A stretch of DNA of 39,647 bases from a virus (taxonomy: Duplodnaviria; Heunggongvirae; Uroviricota; Caudoviricetes). The position numbers were made by a program. The stretch's first letter is position 1; every line of letters starts with the position of its first letter. Below are positions 9,001 to 12,000 of this stretch, piece by piece. The DNA lies in the IMG/VR virus record IMGVR_UViG_2718218399_000002; one strand, written 5' to 3'.

Positions 9001-12000
9001 AGCGGCTGGGGATAAAAATCACAGAACTGGAGTGCGCATGAATAACCACTATTTACAGTTTGTGCGTGAGCTGCTCATTATCGCTACCGCCGATTTGAGT
9101 GGGGCAACAAAAGGTCAGCTTGAAGCCTGGCAGGAGAATGCCATGTTCGATACAGGGCGTTACAGGCGAAAAAAAATCCGGTACCGCGATGAAGTGACTG
9201 GAAAAATGATAACGCGGGATAATCCACCAATCCCGGGAAAGCAATCGCTGGCGAAGGTGACGTCAATTCCTCTGGTCAGTCCGGTTGAGTTTTCGACATC
9301 ATCGTGGCGGCGGGCTGTTCTGTCTCTTGAAGAACATCATAAAGCCTGGTTGTTGTGGTGTTACAGCGGGAGTATTTGTTGGGAATATCAGATCGCGATA
9401 ACACAGTGGGCGTGGAATGAATTTAATACTCAATCCGGTACCAGAAAAATTGCAGGGAAAACGCAGGAACGCCTGAAAAAATTAATCTGGCTGGCGGCGC
9501 AGGCAGTAAAAGCAGAACTTTTTGGTGGGGAAGGTTATGAATACAAGGAGCTGGCATTACTGGTGGGAGTGACAACTAAAAACTGGTCCAAAACATTTAC
9601 TCGTCACTGGGTTGCAATGAAACACATTTTTCACCGACTGGATAGTGAGGCTTTATTGTTTGTAATGAGAACGCGTTCAAAACAAAAGGCGGCATTTTCA
9701 AAGCAAAGTGTTGCAAAAGTAGATTGAAAGGCATATATTTCATGCAAATCTGATATTTTGCCGATTTTGTACGTGATGGCAAAAGCAAACAAAACCCGCC
9801 CACAAGCGGGTTTTTTTGTGCCACTTATCTCGGATAGACATGGTGAATGCGCTGGTGGAGGAAGCAAGGGTAATTTTTAACCAGGTGATTCTTGAATGCT
9901 TGCAACATTGATTTCGTAACGTTATTATCCTGCGCCCGGCCCTTTAGCTCAGTGGTGAGAGCGAGCGACTCATAATCGCCAGGCCGCTGGTTCAAATCCA
10001 GCAAGGGCCACCATCACATACCGCCATTAGCTCATCGGGATAGAACGCCAGCCTTCGAAGCTGGTTTCGCGGGGTTCGAGTCTCCGATGGCGGTCCATTA
10101 TCGGTATTCTGCGTTTTTAGCTCAGCCGGACAGAGCAATTGCCTTCTAAGCAATCGGTCACTGGTTCGAACCCAGTACAACGCACCACACTTATTTTCCC
10201 TCGCTCGCTTTTGCGGACCTTTTTTGTATCCGCACCACGCCCGGCGCATACCAACCACAGAGCCTTTCGGGGGGAGCTTATGGAGTGGTCAGTGTGACTT
10301 TCTCTGTGGGCAGATCGCTCCCGGGCGTTGGCTCACCCACCCAAAGGAACGTCACGATGTTTGGTATTTTTGGTAAAAAAAGCCCGCAGAGCGGCAACGG
10401 AAATTAAAAAGTTTGAAAAACGCGATCTGGCACAGGTGGTGATTAACGCCGCATACCTGGTGGCCTGTGCAGATGGTGAATGTGAGGCATCCGAGAAAGC
10501 GAAGATCGAACAGGTACTGCGTAATCAGCCTGCGCTGTACGCGTTTACGTCAGAAATTAATGCGATTAGCGCAACCATTATCGGTCAGCTGGATACGAAC
10601 TTTAAAACTGGTCGTCGTGCGGCGTTACGTGAGATCGAGGATGTGAAACACGATACGCGTGAAGCGGAAGATGTGCTGGATGTGGCGGTGGCCATTGCGG
10701 AGGCAGACGGCGAAATTGAGCCGGAAGAGCGCAAGGTGCTGGAAGAGATTGCCGGTGTTCTGGGTCTTCGTCTGGAGAATTACCTGTGACGGTAAAACTG
10801 CGCCTGACTGTGGCTGCACTCCTGCTGTTTCTGGTGGTGATGGTGGATTTCACCAGCAGAATCATGTCGGTGCTGGCGGATGGGGTGCTGGTCTGCGGCA
10901 TTATGGTATTGCTGTGGCCGGTGATAAAAAGAAACAGCCTGCATAATGCTTGATTTTTTTGTTTGCTGTTTATTAAAAACACTTCTGCATGGTGAATCCC
11001 CCTGTGCGGTGGGGCAATCAGCAAGAAGGAATATGGGGTAATCGCGGATTCAGGTGCTGATACTGAATTCACCGGGAGGCACCCGGCACCATGCTTTGCC
11101 ACAAAAGTGTTATTTCTGTTTTTCTCAAACTATCATCGTTATCCCTTTATTTTCGGCTGCGCATGGCGCGGCCTTTTTTTACGACCAGCCACTGGCAGAT
11201 GGTCATCCTGTGATTTGATTCCGCTTCCGGCTTTTTAACTCTGTTCCTCTACACGGGAGAAATTCGATGTCGATTAAACATTATGATGTTGTCAGGGCGG
11301 CGTCGCCGTCAGACCTTGCGGAAAAGCTGACACACAAACTGAAAGAGGGCTGGCAGCCATACGGCGGACCGGTTGCCATTACGCCGTACACACTGATGCA
11401 GGCGGTGGCTATTGAAGGAGAGCCACAGGTCGGCCCTTCATCTGAGCCGGATTGGTACTACGTCATCGTACTGGCCGGGCAGTCCAATGCCATGGCTTAC
11501 GGTGAAGGGCTTCCGCTGCCGGATTCATACGATGCTCCGGATCCGCGCATTAAACAGCTGGCGCGCCGCAGTACAGTGACGCCGGGCGGGGCTGCCTGCA
11601 GATATAACGATATTATTCCGGCTGACCACTGTCTGCATGATGTGCAGGATATGAGTACGCTGAATCATCCGAGGGCTGACCTGAGCAAAGGGCAGTACGG
11701 CTGTGTCGGCCAGGGTTTACATATTGCCAAAAAACTGCTCCCGTATATCCCGAATAACGCGGGATCCTGCTGGTACCATGCTGTCGTGGTGGTTCGGCAT
11801 TTACCCAGGGCGCGGAGGGACATTCAGCGAGTCCACGGGGGCCAGTCAGGATTCGGCACGCTGGGGGTGGGCAAGCCGTTATATCAGGATCTGATTTCCC
11901 GCACAAAAGCGGCATTGCAGAAAAATCCCAAAAACGTTCTGCTGGCCGTCTGCTGGATGCAGGGTGAGTTTGACATGAGCGCCGCCACCCACGCACAGCA

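Follow-up and report, generated by a model that had tools for sequence, protein, structure and literature searches.

The nanS-p gene analysed here is a standard prophage-encoded NanS-p, a predicted sialate 9-O-acetylesterase as judged by its sequence, in which each of three closely spaced G-runs is one G short. With high probability the missing bases are homopolymer under-calls in an ordinary nanS-p gene, introduced by errors in sequencing, consensus calling or polishing, and not real mutations. The window, by which we mean the whole stretch of 39,647 nucleotides under study, represents a non-Stx lambdoid prophage of E. coli O157:H7. As the first-pass annotation had claimed, the ORF of 615 amino acids stays open; it extends from 11267 to 13114, and since the three −1 deletions sum to −3, the sequence returns to the main frame without encountering a stop. 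The features that bear on this gene are the following.

11267-13114, plus strand: nanS-p ORF, 615 aa as written, with Pfam and structure matches
11477-11491, plus strand: SGNH Block I, GQSNA, which supplies the nucleophilic Ser; preserved in the main frame and aligned to 3PT5
11761-11763, plus strand: G-run 1, GGG in the window and GGGG in homologues; first −1 deletion, true frame passes to frame 1
11764-11816, plus strand: frame-1 segment with the conserved reading ILLVPCCRGGSAFTQGAE; its main-frame translation, SCWYHAVVVVRHLPRARR, is unrelated
11785-11802, plus strand: SGNH Block II, RGGSAF, the oxyanion-hole block; readable only in frame 1 (3PT5 alignment, PMC10792757)
11817-11819, plus strand: G-run 2, GGG in the window and GGGG in homologues; second −1 deletion, true frame passes to frame 0
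11820-11862, plus strand: frame-0 segment with the conserved reading TFSESTGASQDSAR; it also lies within a 63-aa ORF at 11703-11894
11863-11867, plus strand: G-run 3, GGGGG in the window and GGGGGG in homologues; third −1 deletion, true frame returns to the main frame at VGKPLYQDL
11957-11974, plus strand: SGNH/SASA Block III, MQGEFD; located 3' of the lesion and preserved in the main frame

When positions 11745-11890 were translated in three frames, the main frame of nanS-p (position mod 3 = 2) was found to read IPNNAG SCWYHAVVVVRHLPRARRDIQRVHGGQSGFGTL GVGKPLYQDL, while frame 1 carries GILLVPCCRGGSAFTQGAEG and frame 0 carries TFSESTGASQDSARWG. Conserved NanS sequence thus switches to the two other frames from 11761 to 11867. 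This agrees with the earlier observation that SGNH-like sequence lies in the other two frames before rejoining the main frame at VGKPLYQDL, which was substantiated by alignments with the phage 434 and YYZ-2008 proteins and with 3PT5. The coordinates given previously for the three G-runs (11761-11763, 11817-11819 and 11863-11867) proved exact, and the runs do mark the frame junctions; however, they had been described as insertions, whereas each is a one-G deletion relative to every homologue. The catalytic domain had been said to be wrong over about 40 residues, and a wrong stretch does exist, but it comprises 33 amino acids (window residues 167-199) in place of 34 amino acids of the true protein.

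The nature and positions of the deletions are established by comparison with homologues. The window gene is 99.4% identical to a gene of phage 434 annotated as 'SASA family carbohydrate esterase' and about 96% identical to its counterparts in Stx1 phages and in YYZ-2008, and each of these homologues has 3 nt more in the region aligned. In the DNA alignment, the window and the homologues differ in length only by the one G that each run lacks in the window. At the protein level, divergence is confined to residues 167-199, where the homologues read ILLVPCCRGGSAFTQGAEGTFSESTGASQDSARW, that is, the frame-1 and frame-0 peptides joined. Residue for residue, these two peptides match NanS-p of phage 434, NanS-p of phage YYZ-2008 and chromosomal NanS (3PT5), the crystallised protein reading NAGILIVPCCRGGSAFTAGSEGTYSERHGASHDACRWG across the disputed stretch. 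Comparison of the frame translations with NanS/YjhS family proteins, proposed in the first-pass annotation, therefore had a clear outcome, as 3PT5 aligns to the alternative-frame peptides. With three Gs put back into the window sequence, the intact gene has 1851 nt and encodes 616 amino acids, and this protein is identical to WP_000023257.1 of strain 86-24. To the intact protein 3PT5 aligns over query residues 60-379 (E=9.5e-123).

The domain structure of the encoded protein reflects the same local damage. NanS-p has a three-domain layout consisting of DUF1737, a SASA/SGNH esterase domain and a lectin-like C-terminal domain, DUF6645, and Pfam detects all three in the window protein (DUF1737, 56.7 bits, residues 4-49; SASA PF03629, 31.6 bits; DUF6645, 65.7 bits, residues 466-576). 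The structure 6YP6, which represents the C-terminal domain of NanS-p, matches residues 421-613 (E=1.4e-29). The SASA match covers residues 66-262 with 48.6 bits in the intact protein, compared with residues 202-261 and 31.6 bits in the window protein. The SGNH blocks tabulated for 3PT5 are GQSNA (Block I), RGGSAF (Block II), MQGEFD (Block III) and a His block ending in SHFS (PMC10792757). Block I is present in the main frame of the window (LAGQSNAMAYG, residues 69-79), where it aligns to GQSNA of 3PT5; Block III (CWMQGEFDM) and the C-terminal His block of the form R-x-x-H-F-S (NRPTHFSS) are likewise main-frame sequences with aligned counterparts in 3PT5. By contrast, Block II is missing from the main frame, which reads VVVVRHL at this place, and is present in frame 1 and in the repaired protein. 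It is only because of the three missing Gs that the window protein lacks this block.

Searches established that the window allele is unique. While the intact 616-aa protein WP_000023257.1 is encoded on at least 386 contigs, the 615-aa protein of the window was absent among about 15 billion public proteins, and no indexed contig encodes it. Positions 11500-12100 found a 100% match in none of 5426 complete E. coli genomes. The gene is present in several copies in O157 genomes, with a median of 2 and up to 10 matching places per genome. It had been reasoned that homologues matching the main-frame translation would speak against a frame problem, and none was found; the homologues examined fit the other frames. 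A search of 5.8 billion protein clusters with the 41-aa main-frame peptide returned a single match, a 57-aa 'hypothetical protein'. We rejected this protein as a main-frame homologue since it corresponds to an alternative frame of an intact-type nanS-p in the draft genome of E. coli 07798, and hence to a spurious gene call.

Each G-run was also probed individually in complete E. coli genomes. The short allele occurs at run 1 in two of 1381 matching genomes (both flagged frameshifted), at run 2 in none of 1158 and at run 3 in nine of 668 (all flagged frameshifted). Among the nine RefSeq genomes with G6>G5 at the equivalent of window positions 11863-67 are 95-3192, FORC_044, RM8995-C1 and TT12A. 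No complete E. coli genome combines more than one short run. The sporadic single short runs in other RefSeq assemblies carry the PGAP 'frameshifted' flag, and each short-allele copy that was listed or inspected is either flagged frameshifted or named by its C-terminal domain alone. These recurring single short alleles may be either repeated consensus errors or real slippage alleles.

The genomic context of nanS-p is that of a lambdoid late region, with the gene located between Q and holin S. According to the RefSeq annotation of identical loci the gene order is Q, three tRNAs, TerB, DUF3927, SASA esterase, IS1203 and holin. The three phage tRNA genes downstream of Q (9938-10187, plus strand) have CAT, Arg-TCG and Arg-TCT specificity, the CAT tRNA being assigned to Met by ARAGORN and to Ile in RefSeq. 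An IS1203/IS629 (IS3-family) transposase gene at 13196-14409 on the minus strand separates nanS-p from the class II holin gene, as it also does in EDL933, 86-24 and ECP17-1298. The genomes closest to the window are 86-24 (CP038408) and ATCC 43888 (CP041623). Up to 28495 the window equals an EDL933 prophage carrying espJ and an EspF-repeat (TccP-like) gene, whereas 28496-39647 (tail genes, sodC, tccP2) diverges from EDL933 and matches 86-24 and ATCC 43888; the tail region from 28496 is thus mosaic or recombinant. The tccP2 pseudogene (37997-38895) contains internal tandem repeats, visible as BLAST self-matches of about 99% identity at an offset of about 141 nt.

The lesion in nanS-p is part of a pattern that extends over the entire window. 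End-to-end alignment with O157:H7 strain 86-24 (CP038408, 1990041-2029700) yielded no mismatch, no insertion and 13 one-base deletions over 39,647 nt, all 13 of them in homopolymer runs (11 G, one A and one T). Relative to the re-sequenced EDL933 genome the pattern is the same, with 12 deletions and no substitution in the first 28.5 kb. The 13 deletions are distributed as follows.

11760, 11816 and 11862: nanS-p; G4>G3, G4>G3 and G6>G5
19045 and 19513: terminase large subunit; the deletion at 19045 is G9>G8
20856: head-tail joining protein
21199 and 22151: portal; the deletion at 21199 is A5>A4
23267: S49 protease; T5>T4
26171 and 26253: tail assembly T
27387: tape measure
38409: tccP2 pseudogene

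The ten deletions outside nanS-p thus include G9>G8, several G4>G3, one G5>G4, A5>A4, T5>T4 and one G3>G2. The terminase G9>G8 change is also found in ECP17-1298, where it is flagged frameshifted. The six phage genes listed from terminase large subunit to tape measure are interrupted by premature stops in the window, whereas their counterparts in 86-24 and EDL933 are intact. Of the 12 hit runs with a length of at least 4, 10 are G-runs, a significant excess over their share of all runs (p=6e-5), and a base-specific G bias of this kind is what a systematic base-calling error would produce. A strand bias between G-runs and C-runs, of which the window contains 177 and 46, respectively, with a length of at least 4, was not significant (p=0.23).

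Taken together, deletions only, in homopolymers only, with an excess of G, no substitution in 39.6 kb, essential phage genes broken and an allele that is reproduced nowhere else argue for an artefact. According to the model that we favor, three single-G under-calls within 106 nt of the source assembly would sum to −3, and the roughly 34 codons read out of frame would happen to be free of stops, so that the ORF would survive with residues 167-199, including Block II, mistranslated. The absence of a stop is, by our estimate, unremarkable since the frame is bound to be recovered after three −1 events and no more than about 34 codons must stay open. Re-polishing, as recommended in the first-pass annotation, is the appropriate remedy.

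One aspect counts against an artefact. The three events in nanS-p span 106 bp, a clustering beyond chance under a uniform error model (p ~0.006); three of the four G-runs of length at least 4 within 11600-12100 were hit, and none in the flanking 11.7 kb and 7 kb. Our guess is that a local fall in consensus quality in the multi-copy nanS-p gene lies behind this clustering. We suspect that nanS-p and the late genes, being multi-copy, are hard to polish and that errors persist there for this reason, a notion that does not obviously explain why the IS1203 and lysis region is error-free.

The main competitor of an under-calling error would be real slipped-strand mutation in nanS-p of this isolate, in which two further −1 frameshifts compensated for an initial one, so that the decaying cryptic prophage would now encode a NanS-p that is altered or has no esterase activity. 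G-runs are natural slippage sites, and some of the single short alleles encountered at runs 1 and 3 in other assemblies could be real. The presence of several nanS-p copies per O157 genome means that the loss of one would come at little cost. Moreover, the reference genomes themselves carry a defective form of the prophage, and real decay is conceivable in such an element: the major capsid gene is a 264-nt fragment even there (window ~24430-24690), which makes the prophage defective independently of any sequence errors, and tccP2 is a pseudogene that is already annotated as frameshifted in 86-24. Against this stands the composition of the differences, since 39.6 kb with 13 one-base deletions, and without a single substitution, would scale to about 1,800 frameshifts in a genome of 5.5 Mb. 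Mutation would also have to account for the fact that all 13 events are deletions and all are located in homopolymers, and for the absence of the allele from every other genome or protein collection searched. Finally, two G4>G3 and one G6>G5 changes in 106 nt with no other difference make an implausible mutational history, and we consider real mutation unlikely. Even less probable is a variant of this idea in which short G-tracts are real slippage hot-spots that switch single copies of a multi-copy esterase off, and in which a triple slip produced here an in-frame variant that has lost Block II and kept the lectin-like domain.

Programmed recoding, in which −1 shifts of the ribosome or slippage during transcription at the three G-runs would yield the conserved protein, was rejected as highly improbable. 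It has in its favor that the conserved sequence can be threaded over the frames at the G-runs, and nothing beyond. Each homologue compared across the stretch is encoded in one uninterrupted frame, and none of the three sites (AAC GCG GGA UCC, GCG GAG GGA CAU and ACG CUG GGG GUG) contains an X XXY YYZ slippery heptamer when read in the main frame. Transcriptional slippage usually needs long runs, and those present here, of G3 to G5, are shorter. In addition, three efficient events in succession would be needed, and lesions of the same type break six other genes of the window. The reverse proposal, that the window has the correct run lengths and the G-runs are over-called in the many other assemblies, has nothing specific to recommend it. 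Over 1000 complete genomes, contributed by many laboratories, agree on G4/G4/G6 with the old phage records 434, H-19B and YYZ-2008, and the proposal is refuted by the fact that G4/G4/G6 alone preserves protein-level conservation with chromosomal NanS, for which the crystal structure has been solved.

We are thus almost certainly dealing with a known gene that contains assembly errors, a matter of data quality involving no new biology. Its consequences are practical ones. Since no stop or length anomaly is visible, an annotation pipeline would consider the 615-aa ORF intact and name it 'SASA family carbohydrate esterase', and the 33 wrong residues, which include the oxyanion-hole block, would mislead NanS-p allele typing, structure modelling and active-site comparison. 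As homopolymer deletions occur about once every 3 kb in this part of the source assembly, its other 'pseudogenes' (terminase, portal, protease, tape measure) should not be taken for prophage decay either. Detection of such cases is useful for the quality control of annotations.

Chromosomal NanS (YjhS, 3PT5) resembles the repaired NanS-p in its SGNH/SASA domain with the blocks GQSNA, RGGSAF, MQGEFD and His, and differs from it in being devoid of the N-terminal DUF1737 and the C-terminal lectin-like (6YP6-type) domain. NanS-p removes O-acetyl groups from mucin-derived sialic acids (PMC8319020; PMC10462455), and de-O-acetylation of colonic mucin sialic acids is a function of both NanS and NanS-p esterases of EHEC (PMC8319020). 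Among the references listed in PMC8319020 are reports of esterase activity for NanS-p proteins of EDL933. The EHEC NanS-p proteins, such as Z1466 of 933W and the multiple copies in EDL933, have the same domain architecture as the window gene, and the repaired gene is 100% identical to a copy in O157:H7 strains 86-24, EDL933 and ECP17-1298 that occupies the same position between Q with the tRNAs and the lysis cassette. Compared with known NanS-p, the window version has 615 instead of 616 amino acids, with 33 residues including Block II out of frame, and the gene resides in a non-Stx prophage with an IS1203 insertion after it. The other known system to which the window can be likened is that of residual homopolymer under-calls in deposited assemblies, which produce the same deletion-only and homopolymer-only pattern and likewise break genes that are intact in sister genomes. 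Unlike in the usual cases of this kind, the three errors in nanS-p cancel within one gene, which would therefore receive no pseudogene flag, and this is the only unusual aspect of the case.
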